The notes under the pieces: generated by a model
Database searches by the model: none
Told to the model about the DNA's origin: nothing
What the model saw: only the letters and a program-made list of their open reading frames with translations
Made by a program: the position numbers and the translations under genes
Shown: positions 22,712-58,889 of the stretch, in pieces
Layout: each line of letters opens with the position of its first letter
Position numbering within the stretch: the first letter of the stretch is position 1
Source of the DNA: Clostridia bacterium
Lineage (GTDB): Bacteria > Bacillota > Clostridia > Christensenellales > CAG-138
Direction of reading: 5' to 3'
Assembly: GCA_017451295.1 (NCBI GenBank)
Contig: JAFSPW010000110.1
Coordinates: 40,213 to 104,212, forward strand
Length of the DNA stretch: 64,000 nucleotides

Positions 22712-22786
22712 CATTTGGGCAACATAAGTGTAAACACCCCCTCCCCCGGCTTGTCCTTTTGCGCCGGGCTTCCTATACTGATACGC

Positions 22787-23656
22787 ATGAAAGACGCTAA
22801 ACGACACCATCGGCCTTTGCTCTGGGCCCTGTCCCTGCTGCTGCTCGGGGCCATGATATGGTTCGGTCTGCCGCCCTACTATCAGCCTTTGGCTATCGGT
22901 GTGGCAGTCCTTTGCCTCCCCTGCCTCCTTTGGTCCAAATGGGGGCCATGGCTCCTGTGCCTTTGCCTCATGGGGCTGGGCGTGCTGCTGTGTACCTTCC
23001 GGGCCGCCGGATACCACTATGCCGCCCTGCTGCCCTTGGGGGCGGCGGTGCTGCTCGTTGTGTTTCGCTTGGGGAAACGGCGGCTGAAGGTCTTTGTGTC
23101 CATAGGAACGGGACTACTCTCAGCTTTTCTGCTTTCAGCTTTGCTGCCGATTCTCGCGGCGGCGTATGCCGGACAGCAAGCAGATGCCCCCTATGTCATC
23201 GTGCTGGGGGCGGCGGTGTATGGACAGACCCCCTCCATCTCGCTACGGCATCGGCTCGACAAGGCGGCGGCGTATCTGAATGATAATCCCGAGGCTACCG
23301 CCGTGGTGTCCGGAGGCCAGGGCGAAGGGGAGGATATCTCCGAGGCGGAATGCATGCGCCGGTACCTTGTGGACAAGGGCATAGACGAAAGCCGGATCCT
23401 AATGGAGGCTGCTTCCACCTCCACCCTGGAGAATCTGACCTTCTCCAAGGCGGTGATTGAGGCCTCCGGCGGCGATGCCGCAGAGGTGGCCATTGTATCG
23501 AGCGCCTATCATCTCTACCGGGCAAAGGGCATGGCCAAGTCCCTGGGCATGGAGGCCCGGGGCATCGCCAGCCAGGACGGCTACCCCGTCTACATGGCGG
23601 GGATGTATATCCGGGAGGCCCTCGCGGTATGGAAGCTGTGGCTGTTTGGGGTATAG
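22787..23656 (+). CDS. YdcF/DUF218 (ElyC/SanA-like) family protein with N-terminal TM region
   Basis: YVIVLGAAVYGQTPS...VVSGGQGEGEDISEAECM...STSTLENL...IVSSAYHLYRA is the DUF218 core. Start placed at MKDAKRHH (22787). Confidence 0.7.
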   Translation: MKDAKRHHRPLLWALSLLLLGAMIWFGLPPYYQPLAIGVAVLCLPCLLWSKWGPWLLCLCLMGLGVLLCTFRAAGYHYAALLPLGAAVLLVVFRLGKRRLKVFVSIGTGLLSAFLLSALLPILAAAYAGQQADAPYVIVLGAAVYGQTPSISLRHRLDKAAAYLNDNPEATAVVSGGQGEGEDISEAECMRRYLVDKGIDESRILMEAASTSTLENLTFSKAVIEASGGDAAEVAIVSSAYHLYRAKGMAKSLGMEARGIASQDGYPVYMAGMYIREALAVWKLWLFGV

Positions 23657-23658
23657 GC

Positions 23659-23796
23659 GCCCCTCTGGCAGGGTTTGTTTCCCTCTGTCTATGCATCCTG
23701 CCGGTCGCTGCCGGTCGTTTCCAATACTTTTTTTAGAATCGTTTTTTAAAAACGCCCTATACTAGTTTTATGTATTGACCGGCAGGGACCGGCAGG
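23659..23796. repeat. Twin element copy 1: conserved preface + palindromic arms (2 x 10-mer each) + conserved AT-rich core
   Basis: Arms 23697-23717 (CCTGCCGGTCGCTGCCGGTCG) and 23777-23796 (GACCGGCAGGGACCGGCAGG) are reverse complements (19/20). Core 23754-23777 GCCCTATACTAGTTTTATGTATTG. Confidence 0.8.
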
Positions 23797-23818
23797 ATTG
23801 GGGGTGTGAACCCATTTT

Positions 23819-23956
23819 GCCCCTGGGGGCAGGGTTTGATTACTTCCAAAGCGAAACTATGACGGCCGATGTCGGCCATTTCTAAAAACTATTTTAGATT
23901 AAAAATAAAAAAATGCCCTATACTAGTTTTATGTATTGGCCGACATTGGCCGACAT
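23819..23956. repeat. Twin element copy 2: same architecture, different arm sequence
   Basis: Arms 23859-23877 (ATGACGGCCGATGTCGGCC) and 23938-23956 (GGCCGACATTGGCCGACAT) are reverse complements (17/19). The identical 24-nt core lies at 23915-23938. Preface GCCCCTGGGGGCAGGGTTTG matches 23659-23679. Confidence 0.8.
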
Positions 23957-23978
23957 ACGCACACACAAGAGCGCAGCC

Positions 23979-36744: not shown

Positions 36745-37069
36745 CTACTTGATTATCTGTAGATTCGCATCCGTCATCAGCCGTTCCAGAGAGTAGCAGA
36801 ACAGCAGTTCCTGTGCCCCATACTCCTTGCAAACCTCCGCCACGCTGCCCCGATAGTAGCGCGGATCCACCATGACGATACGCCGATAGCTGGGAACCAG
36901 CAGGGGCGTCCCAAAAAAGGCTCGCATACTTGAACACGAACAGCAGCAGCAGGTTGACCGTCACGCTGATGAGCAGAAAGAGCTTTTTGCGTTTGGGCCA
37001 TCTGTCCATGGCAAAAAGGCGAATAAAAAGGTAAGGGATGAAAAAACCATAGGCGCCAGCCTTTATTCA
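36745..37069 (-). pseudogene. Deletion scar: internal MBOAT (AlgI/DltB-like) fragment fused out of frame to the C-terminal tail of a DHHW-like protein
   Basis: Frame A reads GAYGFFIPYLFIRLFAMDRWPKRKKLFLLISVTVNLLLLFVFKYASLF, an MBOAT region normally about 60-110 aa into the protein, preceded by an in-frame stop. The +1 frame continues PLLVPSYRRIVMVDPRYYRGSVAEVCKEYGAQELLFCYSLERLMTDANL, which resembles DHHW-family C-termini. Confidence 0.45.
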
Positions 37070-37170
37070 AAAATCTACTTATTCTATCATGGCCCCCCTG
37101 GTTTTTCAACCACCATTCGCCCTGTGCTATCCACGCAAAAAGCCACCTGAGCATTAGGTAGTATACCGCC

Positions 37171-37275
37171 CAAAGCACCGGGAATGCGGCCCCAGTACAC
37201 GGGCCACTTCAAATCGCGAAAGCCCGCCCCGGGAATGAGCACAATTGGATATTGAGTTTGGCAGGAGTAAGGCAA
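37171..37275 (-). pseudogene. Orphan 5' fragment of the lipase gene (left copy of a 100-nt direct repeat)
   Basis: 37171-37270 is 98/100 identical to 41453-41552. Encodes MPYSCQTQYPIVLIPGAGFRDLKWPVYWGRIPGAL versus MQDYSCQTQYPIVLIHGAGFRDLKWPVYWGRIPGAL of the intact gene, then diverges and stops. Confidence 0.8.
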
Positions 37276-37366
37276 GTGGCTAAAATTGCCATTTACCGCC
37301 GTAGAAGAAGCAGTATCTTCATAGTTTGTTTTGGTAAGTGATCAACATGAGCGCTTACCAGATTTC

Positions 37367-37406
37367 TGGCAAGGGCAAAGGATAATTTCCATTTTTGCCG
37401 TTGCCA
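37367..37406 (+). promoter_or_regulatory. 13-bp-arm inverted repeat (operator-like) overlapping the -35 of the hipA-like gene
   Basis: TGGCAAGGGCAAA (37367-37379) pairs with TTTGCCGTTGCCA (37394-37406), 12/13 complementary, 14-nt spacer. Confidence 0.6.
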
Positions 37407-37429
37407 AAGCGGATAAAACGGGGTATAAT
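37401..37429 (+). promoter_or_regulatory. Sigma-A-type promoter of the hipA-like gene
   Basis: TTGCCA (37401-37406), 17-nt spacer, TATAAT (37424-37429). RBS GAAAGGGGG lies 7 nt before ATG 37457. Confidence 0.55.
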
Positions 37430-37456
37430 AACGGTGGTAAGAAAGGGGGTTAATTC

Positions 37457-38959
37457 ATGCCTGACCGAATTACGATACAGAAGATAGCGGAATTAACCGA
37501 AAAGATCGGGAAACTCCCCAAAGGCTATATCTCCAAAAAGACCGTGAACGGTAACGTTTATTTTTATCATCAGTGGTCGGAAGGCGGCGTAAAGAAAAGC
37601 AAGTATCTCCGCGATGAGGAGATCGCCGGGCTAACCGATCAGATTGAACTAAGAAAAAAGTTGCAAAAAGAACTGGCTGAAATCAAGGCGGGCAACGTTG
37701 CCTCGCCCAAAGTTCAGAACGGTTTTTTGAAGTGTACCCTGATGCATAAATGCACACCCGTAGTCGAACTCAATCTCGATAACGAAACCGGTTTTATTCA
37801 GAAAATCGGTGCTGTTTTTGCGCCCGAGCATCTGCCCGTTGGCGTCGGTATGAAAAAGGGCGCCGTCGATCGCGCGGCACTGAACGCTTGGTGGACGGAA
37901 AGATCCATCCCCGCCAGCCGCTCCGGTGTGCGCGAGGCAATGGAAACGCTGCAGATCACCGATACAAAAATGCTGTTGATTCGCTGCTTCGGTCTCTCCC
38001 TTTCAGACCAGTATTGGATCCGCCCCGAAAACTCCGAACTTACCTGGGAAAAGATCAACTTTTTTGAAAACGAGTTTTCCGATGATATCGGCGACGTACT
38101 GTTCGGCGCGGATAAGAAACCGGATCCGCTCAATTTCTCTTCGCCCGATAATACCTCCGACGGCAATCTGAAAAAGCGATGGAAAATCATTGACGGCAAG
38201 CGTTGCCTTGTCAAAGGCGGCTCCAACCCCTACCGTCAGCAACCGTTGAACGAAGTCGTCGCCTCAAAGATCATGCGTCGGCTGAATATTCCCCACGTGC
38301 CGTACACCGTGACCTGGAACAAGGGCGCTCCGTACAGCGTGTGCGAAGATTTTGTCAGCGAAGATACCGAGCTTGTCCCGGCGTGGCGGATCATCCAGAC
38401 CAGGAAGCAGCCAAACAGCAAGTCGATGTATCAGCATTTCGTTGACTGCGCGGACGCACTCGGGATCCCGAATGTCAAAGAGTTTTTGGATCAGATGATT
38501 GTGCTCGATTATATCATTGCGAACGAAGATAGACATTTGAACAACTTCGGCGCAATTCGTAACGCCGAAACGCTTGAATGGCTCTGCATGGCGCCGATCT
38601 ATGATAGCGGCTCCTCACTTGGATATGACAAGAGCGTACCGATGATGCGGGACGGGTCGGAGGTAGTCTGCAAACCGTTCAAAAAGCACCACGAAGAACA
38701 GTTAAAACTTGTTTCATCTTTTGACTGGATCGACTTCTCCGCGCTTTCCGGCGTCGGTGAAATGATTACGGAAATCCTCTCCGACGAAAACGCAAAGGAT
38801 TATATGGAAGAAAACCGAATTCGCGTTATTGCTGAGCTGACAGAGCGTCGGATCAAAAATCTGCAAACTCTTGCCAACTCAAAGACGCACAAGCAGACCA
38901 TCACCACCGATGACGAAGTCGGCAAAAACATTGCCGCATCGTATGAAGATAAGAAATAA
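37457..38959 (+). CDS. HipA-homologous Ser/Thr kinase with about 90-aa N-terminal extension and about 100-aa C-terminal extension (monocistronic)
   Basis: Catalytic-loop motif IIANEDRHLNNFG and Mg-binding MAPIYDSGSS, with KRWKIIDGKRCLVKGGS in the ATP-binding region. No HTH/HipB-like ORF on either side. Confidence 0.8.
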   Translation: MPDRITIQKIAELTEKIGKLPKGYISKKTVNGNVYFYHQWSEGGVKKSKYLRDEEIAGLTDQIELRKKLQKELAEIKAGNVASPKVQNGFLKCTLMHKCTPVVELNLDNETGFIQKIGAVFAPEHLPVGVGMKKGAVDRAALNAWWTERSIPASRSGVREAMETLQITDTKMLLIRCFGLSLSDQYWIRPENSELTWEKINFFENEFSDDIGDVLFGADKKPDPLNFSSPDNTSDGNLKKRWKIIDGKRCLVKGGSNPYRQQPLNEVVASKIMRRLNIPHVPYTVTWNKGAPYSVCEDFVSEDTELVPAWRIIQTRKQPNSKSMYQHFVDCADALGIPNVKEFLDQMIVLDYIIANEDRHLNNFGAIRNAETLEWLCMAPIYDSGSSLGYDKSVPMMRDGSEVVCKPFKKHHEEQLKLVSSFDWIDFSALSGVGEMITEILSDENAKDYMEENRIRVIAELTERRIKNLQTLANSKTHKQTITTDDEVGKNIAASYEDKK

Positions 38960-39057
38960 TAGAACGGCAAGTAAGTGCTGCACGCTCGCAGACTTGAAAT
39001 TTTCTGTAGAGTCCAACAGGGTGATGGGCAGAGCCCGGACGATGTCGATGCGCTCGG

Positions 39058-39086
39058 TTGAAATAGATGCAGCCGTATGGTAGTAT
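39058..39086 (+). promoter_or_regulatory. Sigma-A-type promoter of the membrane/PBP gene
   Basis: TTGAAA (39058-39063), 17-nt spacer, TAGTAT (39081-39086). AAAGGAG RBS before ATG 39117. Confidence 0.5.
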
Positions 39087-39116
39087 ACAGAAAACAGATA
39101 GTAAAGGAGTGCTGCA

Positions 39117-40637
39117 ATGAAAAAATGGCTGCAGGTTTTGCTGATCTACTGGCTGATTCCCGCCGTGGGACTGATTCTCGCCGTGGGAGCGGTTGCACGG
39201 ATACCCCTGATTTTTCTGGACTTGAATGTAAATGAATGGTTTTTTGCCTGGTTTGTCCCCATTGTAACCGTATTTCTGTATGTTTTGCTGCGAAAAAAGC
39301 TGGACCTTCCCTTCGCCGCAAGGGTCAATGCCGGGATTCTGATTATACTTTCGGTATCCTTGGCGGTCATTCTGGCCATCACCTCCGGCAGCACAAATGG
39401 TAAAGAGTTCAGCATATTCACCATGCTGACGTTCCCGTTTCTGCTGCTGTCGCTGCTAATGATGGTGGCGGACAGTGCGCTTGCTTTGTTCGCCTGCATC
39501 TTTGCCACCTATGCAGCCGCTATGATTACCTGCCTCGTCCTGTCATCATGCAGTGGAGCTAACGAGCCGGACAGGGTGCAACAGCCACCTATCCGCCGTC
39601 TTTTGCCCTATTTGTTAACCGTTGCGGTGGTCCTGCTCTGCGGAACATTCAGCGTAAAGCAATACCAAAACCGTCCCGAGGTTCGGTATGCGGGGCATGG
39701 TTTCTCGTATATGCATGGATACTCCTCCACGGATTTCACCGATTACATGGTGTATAGTGAGAACTCGAAACTGGTCGAGCTGGACCATCAACCGAGCTTT
39801 ACCATTGAGGATGAGAAGGAGATGCCCGTCATGGACGGTGCGGAAGCGTGCTATCCGGTGTATGCGGCGGTGGCCAAGGCCGTATACCAGGGCATAGAGG
39901 GCATTGAGATGGCTGCATTGCAGACGGATTATGAATATACCAACGGCAAGATTGTCAGCTTCACCAACACCGTGCGTGGATTCTCCCGTCTGTTGGATAA
40001 AGAGGTGAATTTGCTTTTCGGCGCAACGCCCTCCAAAGAACAGCTTGCGGAGGCTGCAAAGAAAGGTATTGCCCTCACCATAACCCCCATCGGTCGGGAG
40101 GCCTTTGTGTTCTTTGTAGAGAAGGACAACCCCATCGACAATCTCACCAGCCAGCAAATCCGGGCCATCTATCACGGAGAGGTAACCAACTGGAAAGAGC
40201 TTGGTGGCAAAAATCAGGAAATCAGGGCCTTTCAACGCCCCCAAAATTCCGGCTCCCAGGCTGTTATGGAATACTTCATGGGGGATGTGTCCCTGATGGA
40301 GCCGGACAAGTATTTCGTCATCAGCGCAATGGGGGACACTATAGAGAAGGTGGCCCAATATGCCGACGAGGACGGCGCCATGGGCTATTCCTTCCGCTAT
40401 TTTGTGGAGGAATTGAATCAAGAGGATGGAGTGAAGATTCTCTGTGTTGACGGCGTTGCCCCGACCCTGGAGAACATCGAAAACGGACTATACCCGCTGA
40501 CGGTGGATCTTTGCCTCATCACCCGCGCCTATGACCCTAAAGCGAATGTGCAGAAGATGATTGATTTTATGCTCTCCCCGGACGGCCAGGAGATTATAAG
40601 AAGAACCGGCTATGCTGCTCTAAAGAGCAATGAATGA
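39117..40637 (+). CDS. Polytopic membrane protein fused to a PstS-like (PBP_like_2) periplasmic-binding domain
   Basis: About 6 hydrophobic helices in residues 1-180. The C-terminal domain has FTNTVRGF..., LTITPIGREAFVFFVEKDNPIDNLTSQQIRAIYHGEVTNWKELGG, QRPQNSGSQ and GLYPLT motifs typical of PstS-family binding proteins. Confidence 0.7.
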   Translation: MKKWLQVLLIYWLIPAVGLILAVGAVARIPLIFLDLNVNEWFFAWFVPIVTVFLYVLLRKKLDLPFAARVNAGILIILSVSLAVILAITSGSTNGKEFSIFTMLTFPFLLLSLLMMVADSALALFACIFATYAAAMITCLVLSSCSGANEPDRVQQPPIRRLLPYLLTVAVVLLCGTFSVKQYQNRPEVRYAGHGFSYMHGYSSTDFTDYMVYSENSKLVELDHQPSFTIEDEKEMPVMDGAEACYPVYAAVAKAVYQGIEGIEMAALQTDYEYTNGKIVSFTNTVRGFSRLLDKEVNLLFGATPSKEQLAEAAKKGIALTITPIGREAFVFFVEKDNPIDNLTSQQIRAIYHGEVTNWKELGGKNQEIRAFQRPQNSGSQAVMEYFMGDVSLMEPDKYFVISAMGDTIEKVAQYADEDGAMGYSFRYFVEELNQEDGVKILCVDGVAPTLENIENGLYPLTVDLCLITRAYDPKANVQKMIDFMLSPDGQEIIRRTGYAALKSNE

Positions 40638-40658
40638 ACGTTCCCCCAATCCACAAAT

Positions 40659-40720
40659 AACGGGACTGCACCAGCTGGTGCAGTCCCGTTGAAGCCACCT
40701 GATGCTCAGGTGGCTTTTTG
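40659..40720. terminator. Two back-to-back hairpins between convergent genes
   Basis: Hairpin 1 AACGGGACTGCACC-agct-GGTGCAGTCCCGTT (40659-40690) has its T-tract on the minus strand (TTATTTGTGG). Hairpin 2 AAGCCACCTGA-tgc-TCAGGTGGCTT (40692-40716) has TTTTG on the plus strand. Confidence 0.6.
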
Positions 40721-56125: not shown

Positions 56126-57616
56126 ATGAAGGTGAAACTGGCGGCTGCGGCTTTGGTCGCTGCCTTGCTTTTGGGCTGCACGGCCCAGGTGACCACGACG
56201 CCCCAGCAGCAGCAGGCGGAGCAGACAGCAACGACCGCCCCAGCCACGGCGGTGCAGGAAACGGCTCAGCCGGTCGAAACGGCGCTCCCGTACCCCAGGT
56301 TTAGGAGCGTGCCGGTCCACGACCCCTCCGTGATGCGGACGGCGGACGGCACCTATTACATCTACGGCAGCCACATGGCCGCCGCCAAGTCAACGGATTT
56401 AATACAGTGGGAGCTTATCTCCCGGGATGCCGGTCGGGGCTGCACGCTGGTAGAGAACGTGCAGCAGCAGATGCAGGAGGCCCTGTCCTGGGCCCAGACC
56501 AACACCTTCTGGGCGCCGTGCGTCATTGAGCTACAGGACGGCCGCTACTATATGTACTACTGCACCTGCCGGGGGGACAGTCCCCTGTCTGCCCTGGGCC
56601 TGGCGGTGGCAGACAGTCCCGAGGGACCCTTTGAAAACAAGGGCATCTTTTTGAAGTCCGGCATGGAGGGCTACGATGCCACCTACTACCCCAACGTGGT
56701 GGACCCCCACGCCTTCTTTGACAAGGAGGGGCGGCTGTGGATGGTCTACGGCTCCTATTCCGGGGGCATCTTCATTTTAGAGATGGACCAGCAGACCGGC
56801 TTCCCCCTGGAAGGCCAGGAGCCCTACGGCAAAAAGCTGCTGGGAAAGAACCATTCCCGCATCGAAGCGCCCTACATGGTCTATAGTCCCGAGACGGACT
56901 ACTACTACCTGTTCCTGTCCTTCGGGGGCTTGGAGGCCGGGGACGGATACAACATCCGGGTGTGCCGCAGCAAGAACCCGGACGGACCCTTCGAGGATGC
57001 CAAGGGGCAGGATATGATTAATTGCGGCGGTTCCGACGGCAGCTATTTCAACGACCCGGACTATGCGGGCTACGGCACCAAGGTCATGGGGAGCTATGTG
57101 TTCCATGAGGCCAATGACGGCTGGGAGGGAGACACCCTCCTCTCCCCCGGCCACAACAGTGTGTATTACGATGAGCAGACCGGGGACTACTTCTTGATTT
57201 TCCACACCCGCTTCGGCCACAAGTGGGGCTATGAAGTATATGTACACCGGCTGTTTATCAACGAGGACGGCTGGTTCGTCTGCTCCCCCACCCGCTATGC
57301 CGGTGAAACGGTGCAGCCTGTGGCGGCAGCGGACAGAGCCGGTGCCTATCGGCTGCTGTGCCACGAGCTGGACATCAACGGCCAGCCCCACGAGTCCGTG
57401 TACGCCGCCTTGGAAGCGGACGGCACCGTCACCGGCGGCTACAGCGGCACCTGGACCGCCGCAGAGGACGGGCGCTTTACCATTACCCTGGGAGAGGATA
57501 CCTACACGGGGGTCATGAACCTGGGCTACGACGAAAGCCAGGGGGAATGGGTCACGGTGTTCACCGCCATGGACAAGGACGGCATCAGCCTCTGGGGCAT
57601 TCGGGACCATCAATAA
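56126..57616 (+). CDS. Glycoside hydrolase family 43 lipoprotein (arabinanase/xylosidase-like)
   Basis: Lipobox LLLGC. VHDPSVMRTADGTYYIYGSH, WAPCVIE..YYMYY and IEAPYMV are GH43 five-bladed-propeller catalytic motifs. A C-terminal beta-sandwich-like domain follows. Confidence 0.8.
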   Translation: MKVKLAAAALVAALLLGCTAQVTTTPQQQQAEQTATTAPATAVQETAQPVETALPYPRFRSVPVHDPSVMRTADGTYYIYGSHMAAAKSTDLIQWELISRDAGRGCTLVENVQQQMQEALSWAQTNTFWAPCVIELQDGRYYMYYCTCRGDSPLSALGLAVADSPEGPFENKGIFLKSGMEGYDATYYPNVVDPHAFFDKEGRLWMVYGSYSGGIFILEMDQQTGFPLEGQEPYGKKLLGKNHSRIEAPYMVYSPETDYYYLFLSFGGLEAGDGYNIRVCRSKNPDGPFEDAKGQDMINCGGSDGSYFNDPDYAGYGTKVMGSYVFHEANDGWEGDTLLSPGHNSVYYDEQTGDYFLIFHTRFGHKWGYEVYVHRLFINEDGWFVCSPTRYAGETVQPVAAADRAGAYRLLCHELDINGQPHESVYAALEADGTVTGGYSGTWTAAEDGRFTITLGEDTYTGVMNLGYDESQGEWVTVFTAMDKDGISLWGIRDHQ

Positions 57617-57670: not shown

Positions 57671-57682
57671 TTTATTTTTTGT

Positions 57683-57849
57683 TTATACTAATCCGCGTCT
57701 AAAACATGTGCAGTCGGCGAGCAAATTCTGCGTTGGTTCCATGAGGAGAATCGCAGATTGACTGGGAACCGTCAATCAAGATTTGACGAAGCAGAACCGG
57801 CACAGAAGGTGCCGCCCAATGTGCATGGGTTAGGCGTGGATTAGTATTA
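57683..57849. other. About 165-nt hairpin-dense element bounded by imperfect 17-nt inverted repeats
   Basis: TTATACTAATCCGCGTC (57683-57699) versus the reverse complement of GGCGTGGATTAGTATTA (57833-57849), 14/17. The interior carries four 6-7-bp stems, three of which interleave. Confidence 0.4.
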
Positions 57850-57852
57850 CTA

Positions 57853-58860
57853 TCAGAGCAGGAGAATCCCTGCCTGCCGGCAGGCGGAGCGGGTGTCCGG
57901 GTCCCAAAGGCTGCTTTGGACCTCGCCGATGTGGCAGGTGCCAATCATGAGCATGCAGAGCCGGCTTTGGCCGATGCCGCCGCCCATGGTCAGGGGCAGT
58001 TCCCCATTGAGAAGCATCTGGTGGAAGGGCAGCTGCCGCCGCTCGGTGCAATGGGCCGCCTCCAACTGCCGCTCCAAAGCCGGGGCATCCACCCGAATGC
58101 CCATGGAGGAAATCTCCAGGGCGCAGGAGAGGGTGTCGTCCCACATGAGAATGTCCCCGTTCATGGTCCAATCGTCATAGTCCGGGGCTCGGCCGTCATG
58201 GGGCTTTCCATCCCGCAGAGCGCCGCCAATCTGGGACAGGAACACGGTCTTATGCAGCCGGGTAATCTCGTTCTCCCGCTGCTTGGGGGTCAAATCCGGG
58301 TACAAGTCCGCCAGGTCCTGGGTGCTGATGAAGAACACCTCCCGGCTTAGCTTCATGGGCAGGCTCGGAAAGGCCACGCACAGGGCATCGGCGGTTTCGC
58401 ACACGGCATCCACAATGGCCCGGACCGTTCGCTGCAGGGTGTCCTCGTTGCGCTCCTCGGGCCGGATAATCTTCTCCCAATCCCATTGGTCCACATAGAT
58501 GGAGTGGAGGTTGTCGAGGCTCTCGTCCCGGCGGATGGCGTTCATGTCCGTAAAGAGGCCCTTGCCCGGCCGGAACCCATAGCGCTTGAGGGCGAGCCGC
58601 TTCCACTTAGCCAGGGAATGGACCACCTGGGCATCCGCCTCGGCGGCGGGAATATCGAAGCTGACCGGCCGTTCATAGCCGTTCAAATCGTCGTTGAGGC
58701 CGGAGCCGGACTGCACGAACAGCGGGGCCGACACCCGGCGCAGGTTCAGTGCGCTGCCCAGATTCATCTGGAAGCTGCTCTTGATAAACTCAATGACCCG
58801 CTGCATCTCATACACGGATAAGGGGGCCCGATAGCCTTCGGGAATGATAATACTGCTCAT
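57853..58860 (-). CDS. asnA: Aspartate--ammonia ligase
   Basis: IIPEGYRAPLSVYEMQRVIEFIKSSF...SAPLF...GGGIGQSRLCM is the AsnA (class II aaRS-like) signature. Start moved to ATG 58860 after GGAGAGGAA. Confidence 0.88.
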   Translation of the reverse strand: MSSIIIPEGYRAPLSVYEMQRVIEFIKSSFQMNLGSALNLRRVSAPLFVQSGSGLNDDLNGYERPVSFDIPAAEADAQVVHSLAKWKRLALKRYGFRPGKGLFTDMNAIRRDESLDNLHSIYVDQWDWEKIIRPEERNEDTLQRTVRAIVDAVCETADALCVAFPSLPMKLSREVFFISTQDLADLYPDLTPKQRENEITRLHKTVFLSQIGGALRDGKPHDGRAPDYDDWTMNGDILMWDDTLSCALEISSMGIRVDAPALERQLEAAHCTERRQLPFHQMLLNGELPLTMGGGIGQSRLCMLMIGTCHIGEVQSSLWDPDTRSACRQAGILLL

Positions 58861-58889
58861 GGTTCCTCTCCGATTCAATCTATTTGCTA

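Follow-up and report, generated by a model that had tools for sequence, protein, structure and literature searches.

The locus and its parts

The stretch of DNA analysed here, 64,000 nt long and referred to below as the window, comes from a lineage of uncultured Clostridia whose RluB protein shares about 71% identity with proteins named Clostridium sp. CAG:1024 and Christensenellales. Within it, a 322-nt gap bordered by two convergent genes holds two palindromic units that lie 161 nt apart. An earlier description made from the letters alone, here called the sequence-only reading, had recognised two copies of one architecture between convergent ydcF-like and rluB genes, and this was borne out by an inverted-repeat search and by the domains of the flanking open reading frames (ORFs). 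The feature is real and accurately placed, and so is the covariation between its arms that is discussed below. Ten further public assemblies, produced in several studies, carry the same locus, which rules out an artefact of assembly. The ten ORFs of the neighbourhood that were scanned against Pfam are housekeeping or unrelated. The parts of the locus, in order along the window, are as follows.

Stop codon 23654-23656, plus strand: end of the DUF218/YdcF-family gene, which borders the gap and converges on the units
23659..23677, plus strand: P1, a short GC hairpin with TTTG, GCCCCTCTGGCAGGGTTTG, directly after the YdcF-gene stop; the terminator-like preface
23678..23694, no strand: spacer s1, from P1 to the left arm of unit 1; aligns barely with spacer s2
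23695..23716, no strand: left arm of unit 1, AT C CTGCCGGTC G CTGCCGGTC, with two tandem sub-repeats; a 22-nt inverted repeat, 95% complementary
23717..23776, plus strand: loop of unit 1, 60 nt, about 25% G+C; a 37-nt A/T-rich left part of free sequence but fixed length, then the conserved right part
23754..23777, plus strand: conserved 24-mer GCCCTATACTAGTTTTATGTATTG of unit 1; includes CCTATACT-N6-ATG, with a -10-like hexamer
23777..23798, no strand: right arm of unit 1, GACCGGCAG G GACCGGCAG G AT; pairs with the left arm
23799..23838, plus strand: t1 + P2, a diverged second copy of the 3' end of the YdcF gene (TTGGGGGT..) and a terminator-like hairpin, GCCCCTGGGGGCAGGGTTTG
23839..23857, no strand: spacer s2, ATTACTTCCAAAGCGAAAC; orthologous to the spacer of the single-unit strain
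23858..23877, no strand: left arm of unit 2, T ATGACGGCC G ATGTCGGCC; 18/20 Watson-Crick pairs plus one G-T
23878..23937, plus strand: loop of unit 2, 60 nt, about 17% G+C
23915..23938, plus strand: 24-mer of unit 2, identical to that of unit 1
23938..23957, no strand: right arm of unit 2, GGCCGACAT T GGCCGACAT A; the RluB-gene stop codon lies 22 nt further
Stop codon 23979-23981, minus strand: end of the RluB-type gene (S4 and PseudoU_synth_2 domains), which borders the gap and converges on the units

The arms had been described as near-perfect reverse complements, which they are, with corrected counts of 21/22 pairs in unit 1 and 18/20 plus one G-T pair in unit 2, in place of 19/20 and 17/19. 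Both strands of both units are predicted to fold into the long stem, with energies from -41 to -52 kcal/mol and z from -6.6 to -8.2 relative to shuffled sequences. The preface to each unit is indeed a duplicated element, as had been noted, and can be defined further: it is the terminator-like hairpin of the YdcF gene, copied along with approximately the last 12 nt of that gene. Since the second preface is preceded by a diverged copy of the gene end, the repeat unit comprises gene end, hairpin, spacer and palindrome. A terminator scan places a terminator-like site within P2 at 23821-23834 on the plus strand, and P1 is rated terminator-like through its counterparts in copy 2 and in the related single-unit locus L018, which score so on the YdcF-gene strand. 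The segment t1 + P2 aligns with the gene end plus the preface of L018.

The loop and its conserved 24-mer

Loop length is nearly fixed, at 60-61 nt in all five sequence versions. Its left 37-38 nt are only 59-72% identical, yet they are A/T-rich throughout, and its right end is the 24-mer that had been reported as identical at 23754 and 23915 and that does close both loops. This 24-mer has no further occurrence in the window at up to three mismatches (0.00 expected by chance). It is identical at 24/24 positions between the units, whereas the remainder of their loops is 59% identical and their spacers are barely alignable; identity amid such diverged surroundings means that constraint, or conversion between the units, must act there. 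Three singleton substitutions occur in it across strains. Its polarity is kept in the window and the ten other assemblies, where it is invariably next to the right arm and directed towards the RluB gene, and the inverted core orientation was found in neither unit of any of them.

The core carries phased A-tracts, and inside the 24-mer lies a -10-like TATACT with GCCC directly upstream. By a consensus scan the spacer is free of promoters in both the window and L018, and the hexamer has neither a -35 element at 16-18 nt (the sequences there are AGAATC, AGATTA and GAAAGA) nor a TG extension. The antisense promoter that the sequence-only reading had offered as one possibility has this hexamer as its sole basis. 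The YdcF gene itself has a predicted promoter at 22751-22789 on the plus strand, TTGTCC-17-(CC)TATACT-N7-ATG, in which the ATG lies only 7 nt past the -10 element, suggesting a leaderless or nearly leaderless mRNA. As CCTATACT-N6-ATG in the 24-mer mirrors CCTATACT-N7-ATG of the YdcF gene, a plus-strand promoter in the 24-mer is conceivable.

Strains and relatives

Five assemblies of the species are identical to the window. Two Logan assemblies, L022 and L023, have flanking genes 4-5% different from those of the window and retain both units; their sole arm change is G to A at the junction of unit 2, which turns the G-T pair into A-T and brings pairing to 19/20, and the 24-mer of their unit 1 is altered once as well, and a T-run is of different length. 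L021 has another single change, in the 24-mer of unit 2. The most informative loci are L018 and L024, two samples from one study with flanking genes 97% identical to those of the window. Here the spacer between the genes is 162 nt and holds one unit only, whose spacer and right flank make it the orthologue of unit 2, and which carries a third arm version, ATGACGGGC ATGACGGGC / GCCGTCAT GCCCGTCAT, paired at 18/19 positions and with a 9-nt period. The loop of L018 is a mosaic of copy-1-like and copy-2-like bases. Further out, relatives at 82-83% RluB identity have the same gene pair with a 34-54-nt spacer and no element; a canonical terminator oriented with the RluB gene is present in one of them, L014. 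In a relative at 87% the neighbourhood is rearranged and the element is likewise absent.

In most strains the element has been doubled in tandem. The single copy of the L018 type probably arose when the two preface hairpins recombined, because the preface of L018 looks like a hybrid of P1 and P2. Judged from the sequences, a P1 x P2 deletion fits better than a simple crossover between copies 1 and 2, which was rejected since L018 keeps the spacer of copy 2 and a copy-2-like left arm. In five of the ten other assemblies (L007, L008, L021, L023 and L024) a contig ends inside the element, in one case at the T-run of strain-variable length and in none at an arm/loop junction. These contig ends probably reflect strain heterogeneity or low coverage rather than inversion.

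Covariation of the arms

The sequence-only reading took the arms to be unrelated in sequence between copies, which does not hold. Every sub-repeat fits nTGnCGGnC, the sub-repeats being CTGCCGGTC in copy 1 and ATG(T/A)CGGCC in copy 2, and 12 of the 20 stem pairs are identical between the copies. In a motif-anchored alignment six stem pairs differ on both sides between copy 1 and copy 2 with Watson-Crick pairing kept. Across the three arm versions TG.CGG.C is invariant in 12/12 sub-repeats, while positions 1, 4 and 8 vary. The 10-nt periodicity, which had been likened to one helical turn, is not a fixed property either: the L018-type unit has 9-nt sub-repeats, with ATGACGGGC present twice. What does stay constant is the distance between arm centres, at 80-83 bp, and the three stem versions are each self-complementary, GC-rich, 19-22 nt long and 90-95% paired. 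Within the window the arm 20-mers have no match at up to three mismatches except in the partner arm, and the motif pair occurs nowhere else in the 64 kb above chance.

It had been proposed that further copies with new arms that are again self-complementary would confirm covariation. This came out positive once, in L018/L024 (18/19), and the third self-complementary arm pair supports a hairpin-forming stem that is kept complementary. Changes on both sides of a pair number six between copy 1 and copy 2, six between copy 1 and L018, and two between copy 2 and L018. In a MAFFT alignment 89.5% of cells pair, against 77.8% in shuffled controls and 19-42% with partners slid, and eight pairs change on both sides; half of the L018 left arm is placed one column off in this alignment, so pairing is understated. 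All covariation measures but one lie above their controls, for three independent arm versions only.

Whether this pattern reflects selection on pairing is a separate question. Each new base is found in three or four of the four sub-repeats of its unit, direct-repeat partners included. Copy 2 has an A-to-T change at sub-repeat position 4 in three of its four sub-repeats, and L018 has a C-to-G change at position 8 in three of four. The incomplete spread leaves a fresh mismatch in both lineages (A-A or G-G), and the sub-repeat that is unconverted is the same in both, ATGACGGCC. Novelties shared among direct and inverted partners, together with fresh mismatches, argue for templated conversion rather than for selection on pairing or independent compensatory mutations. 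Arm change is also episodic rather than clock-like, with a single arm base differing between the window and L022 at 4-5% flanking divergence, and eight arm bases (20%) between the window and L018 at approximately 3%. Of the earlier claim of a stem under selection, therefore, the kept-complementary stem stands; selection is not secure, as the pattern of change fits templated conversion.

Template switching at inverted repeats homogenises their arms and makes or repairs stems in multi-base steps that mimic compensatory mutation (PMC8794818, PMC8604942, PMC5941160). Under such a mechanism, a base change in one of the four sub-repeats would be copied to the others by intrastrand template switching or gene conversion, and slipped pairing between tandem sub-repeats would spread it further; as each arm is a tandem duplicate, out-of-register pairing is possible and could carry a change to all four. 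Complementarity and four-fold uniformity would then be largely a mutational property of the DNA. The units share with quasi-palindromes under replication template switching, as in the Ripley/Lovett model (PMC8794818, PMC8604942, PMC5941160), imperfect arms that are homogenised in multi-base, compensatory-looking steps. They differ in that quasi-palindromes of that type have short stems and spacers, whereas here the spacer is 60 nt, the arms are tandem duplicates and part of the loop is better conserved than the arms. Three sub-repeat positions distinguish copy 1 from copy 2, and both of the positions that changed between copy 2 and L018 belong to these three (approximately 0.08 by chance). The invariant TG.CGG.C and the restricted set of variable positions, neither of which is required by a stem alone, hint at sequence-specific recognition.

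Searches for further copies and comparison with known families

A core that occurs nowhere else had been named by the sequence-only reading as counting against it, and that is the situation as far as exact-match scans can tell, bearing in mind that exact 18-20-mer scans would miss diverged copies and that the 20-mer misses the L018 version by its last base. The 20-mer matched once in the GTDB species representatives, and the 18-mer twice in JGI metagenomes and twice in IMG/VR. None of these matches has arms, and at least one of them, in L009, lies within an ordinary promoter with a start codon. The only 20-mer match in the GTDB species representatives, L001, is in a Planctomycetales metagenome-assembled genome (WFOE01000263.1, 6760-6830, minus strand); it shares CCCTATACTAGTTTTATGTA, which is followed by a short hairpin of its own (GTAAACCCAAAAC..TCTTGGTTTAC), it lacks window-type arms, and the number of matches fits chance. 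No further copy was found with a covariance model run on 125,056 bases, which comprised the window and related loci, or by an architecture scan, and phage and plasmid records showed no similarity at E <= 1. The whole window gave no Rfam match at gathering score; in E-value mode only generic miRNA-hairpin models appeared, at 17-27 bits against thresholds of 60-200.

Several known classes of element resemble the units in part. The REP/BIME elements of enterobacteria are 3' stabilisers of mRNA, often located between convergent genes. Like them, the units are non-coding, hairpin-forming, intergenic downstream of converging genes and capable of tandem arrangement; REP/BIME elements differ in having hundreds of copies, a conserved stem, a short loop and a RAYT transposase, whereas here a single locus was found, with variable stems and a long conserved loop. 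As for membership of the REP/REPIN, MITE or Correia families, no extra copy was found within the 64 kb and the arms are the variable part. Type I toxin-antitoxin systems of the Sib/Ibs type are tandem intergenic units in which a small hydrophobic ORF lies opposite an antisense RNA. The tandem intergenic arrangement and the size of approximately 140-160 nt are shared with these; there is, however, no conserved small ORF here. ORFs of 12-40 codons are wholly different between the window, L022 and L018, and none is conserved on either strand in the three versions, on which grounds a small ORF or type I toxin was rejected.

Other candidates were compared by eye with consensus sequences and set aside. 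The Xer dif site has a 6-nt centre between two 11-nt arms that are partly dyad-symmetric; TTATGTA resembles a XerD arm, but the XerC-arm match needs a 5-nt centre and the inner CATAA/TTATG dyad is absent. Sporulation sigma -10 motifs on the minus strand, a CodY box and a Spo0A box (TGNCGAA, compared with TGnCGG) are partial matches that are broken by strain variants. An iteron- or centromere-like array of the kind bound by Rep, ParR or ribbon-helix-helix (RHH) proteins is not indicated, the period not being fixed and no rep or par gene lying nearby.

Other features of the window

Apart from the units, the window has a rod-like hairpin of approximately 165 nt at 57685-57847 on the plus strand, with ORFs at 56126-57616 (plus) and 57853-58878 (minus) on either side. 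Its 35-nt outer arms are 77% complementary, and it comes just after a terminator-like hairpin with a T-run. The RNA of 57675-57860 is predicted to fold at -87.2 kcal/mol (z -8.6 against shuffles), and no Rfam family matches the hairpin at E <= 1 save a spurious U6atac match on the neighbouring terminator. With its 6S RNA-like predicted shape, it may be an unannotated structured RNA. A low-GC patch at 37000-40700 (48-51%, compared with approximately 59% elsewhere) contains two ORFs, one of 500 aa with a HipA_C kinase domain and the other of 506 aa with a PBP_like_2 domain, and judging by its composition may have been acquired horizontally. Cumulative GC skew over 1-64000 is lowest near 18-19 kb and climbs through the 45 kb that follow, a weak signal, and gene orientation changes from mostly minus to mixed near 21 kb.

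Explanations for the units

The explanation that we tentatively favour, while holding it with somewhat less than even confidence, is that each unit is a non-coding quasi-palindrome peculiar to this lineage, which forms a self-correcting hairpin, stands in place of the usual terminators, and folds in read-through transcripts as a barrier at their 3' ends. The terminator scan finds no canonical terminator after the RluB gene and a weak one after the YdcF gene, the terminator-like sites in the window and L018 lying in the preface only and in the YdcF-gene direction. With no canonical terminator for the one gene and a weak one for the other, transcripts from both would enter the units and fold into the stem. 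The 19-22-bp stem would then keep the two convergent transcription units apart in the manner of REP hairpins, acting at the 3' ends as a barrier or a site of processing, and the asymmetric 24-mer might perhaps add a weak promoter or a protein contact. Such a role appears to be the most economical function. An intrinsic terminator has a GC-rich stem, a 3-8-nt loop and a U-run directly after the stem. Bidirectional terminators of this kind share with the units their position between convergent genes, and relatives have them at the homologous place; only the preface hairpins score terminator-like here, however, P2 and its L018 counterpart passing the terminator scan. The units themselves fall outside the class, having 60-nt loops and no T-run after the stem, and this argues against the favoured explanation, with the loop far from 3-8 nt and no U-run after the stems. 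A plain 3' hairpin also leaves the 24/24 identity of the 24-mer between copies unexplained.

A second explanation is that each unit is a small transcription unit, in which TATACT behind the A/T-rich stretch acts as the -10 element and transcription, beginning approximately 7 nt downstream, passes through the right arm. Unit 1 would then yield an RNA of approximately 65-70 nt ending at P2, and unit 2 and L018 an RNA antisense to the 3' end of the RluB gene, with the arms serving as operators, or forming a hairpin in which the promoter is concealed, either in DNA or in read-through RNA. The far better conservation of the 24-mer than of the remaining loop, its constant polarity in the window and ten assemblies, the resemblance of CCTATACT-N6-ATG to the predicted promoter of the YdcF gene and the terminator-like hairpin approximately 50 nt downstream of unit 1 all agree with this, but we consider it unlikely, as no promoter is scored, the -35 element and TG extension are missing, GCCC sits upstream of the -10 hexamer, and strain substitutions fall at or beside the predicted start (TTTTATG to TTTTTTG, TATACTAG to TATACTGG). 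The left arm would have no role, and the half-transcripts, rejected as terminators or small RNAs, are predicted to fold no better than shuffles in unit 1 (z +0.24) and mildly better in unit 2 (z -2.5). The invariance of TG.CGG.C in 12/12 sub-repeats could alternatively be read as four sites for a protein that recognises these bases, whether a looping repressor or a recombinase or transposase acting on inverted and direct repeats, with the AT-rich core as the working part. The likeness of the four sites within a unit, the 80-83 bp between arm centres and the phased A-tracts of the core fit such a protein; the change of period from 10 nt in the window to 9 nt in L018 would alter helical phasing, the ten Pfam-scanned ORFs include no adjacent regulator, recombinase or partition gene, the motif pair is found nowhere else in the 64 kb above chance, and a protein that reads only the invariant bases gives no reason for the variable positions to agree among the sub-repeats of a unit. 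We therefore regard this as rather doubtful, and the proposal in the sequence-only reading of modules with differing specificity is weakened by arms that share 6/9 positions, a period of 9-10 nt and the absence of a cognate gene nearby.

Concerted evolution of the arms would also follow if each unit were an inverton in which a recombinase flips the 60-nt core, arm-arm recombination keeping the arms identical. Inverted repeats of 19-22 nt and 90-95% complementarity do flank a promoter-like AT-rich segment, and the ends of several short contigs lie within the element. Invertons of gut bacteria (PMC11602134, PMC11892184) share with the units the approximately 20-bp inverted repeats, the short AT-rich promoter-like segment and a gut-type Clostridia genome, and more than 75% of detected invertons are under 300 bases (PMC11602134). 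They differ in that here the segment is 60 nt only, which in our judgement looks short for a recombinase synapse; that the core has one orientation at assembly level in both units of the window and ten assemblies; that both flanking genes point inward, leaving no gene to drive in either orientation; and that no recombinase is found among the ten Pfam-scanned ORFs or the genes called within approximately 4 kb. As the contig ends are not at arm/core junctions and one is at a variable T-run, inversion strikes us as very unlikely. The possibility that a unit is a small mobile palindrome (MITE-, REP/REPIN- or Correia-like) that landed beside a terminator, with sister copies as the source of the arm versions, seems scarcely credible to us. 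It would account for presence and absence among related genomes, for the direct repeat of approximately 20-35 nt that brackets unit 1 (P1, t1+P2), for the absence of unit 1 from L018, whose preface looks like a P1/P2 hybrid, and for the mosaic loop of L018. It has against it the failure of the 64-kb window, the 125-kb covariance-model search and the architecture scan to reveal another copy, the absence of the 18-20-mer core from GTDB species representatives, JGI metagenomes and IMG/VR except for chance matches, the lack of similarity in phage and plasmid records, the arms being the least conserved part when a transposase would need them, and the lack of a target-site duplication directly beside the arms. 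Lastly, the units could belong to an undescribed class of cis-element or small RNA in which the fixed asymmetric loop, with its 24-mer at a constant distance from the arms, does the work and the four-fold sub-repeat arms are an exchangeable address or specificity module that prevents cross-pairing between tandem copies, an idea to which we give little credence. Promoters gated by supercoiling or by a hairpin would be examples, as would recombination sites, and more members with new arms would be expected.

Implications

As it stands, the locus is a single-locus curiosity of one uncultured lineage. If the 24-mer is functional, the units would represent a modular design, absent from current catalogues, in which the loop is fixed and the stem exchangeable. 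As an example of sequence evolution, the locus is a compact natural case of a long stem kept complementary by concerted and probably templated change, in which the intermediates are still visible, with three of four sub-repeats converted in two lineages. It therefore serves as a caution that covariation in inverted repeats is no proof of selection on RNA structure.
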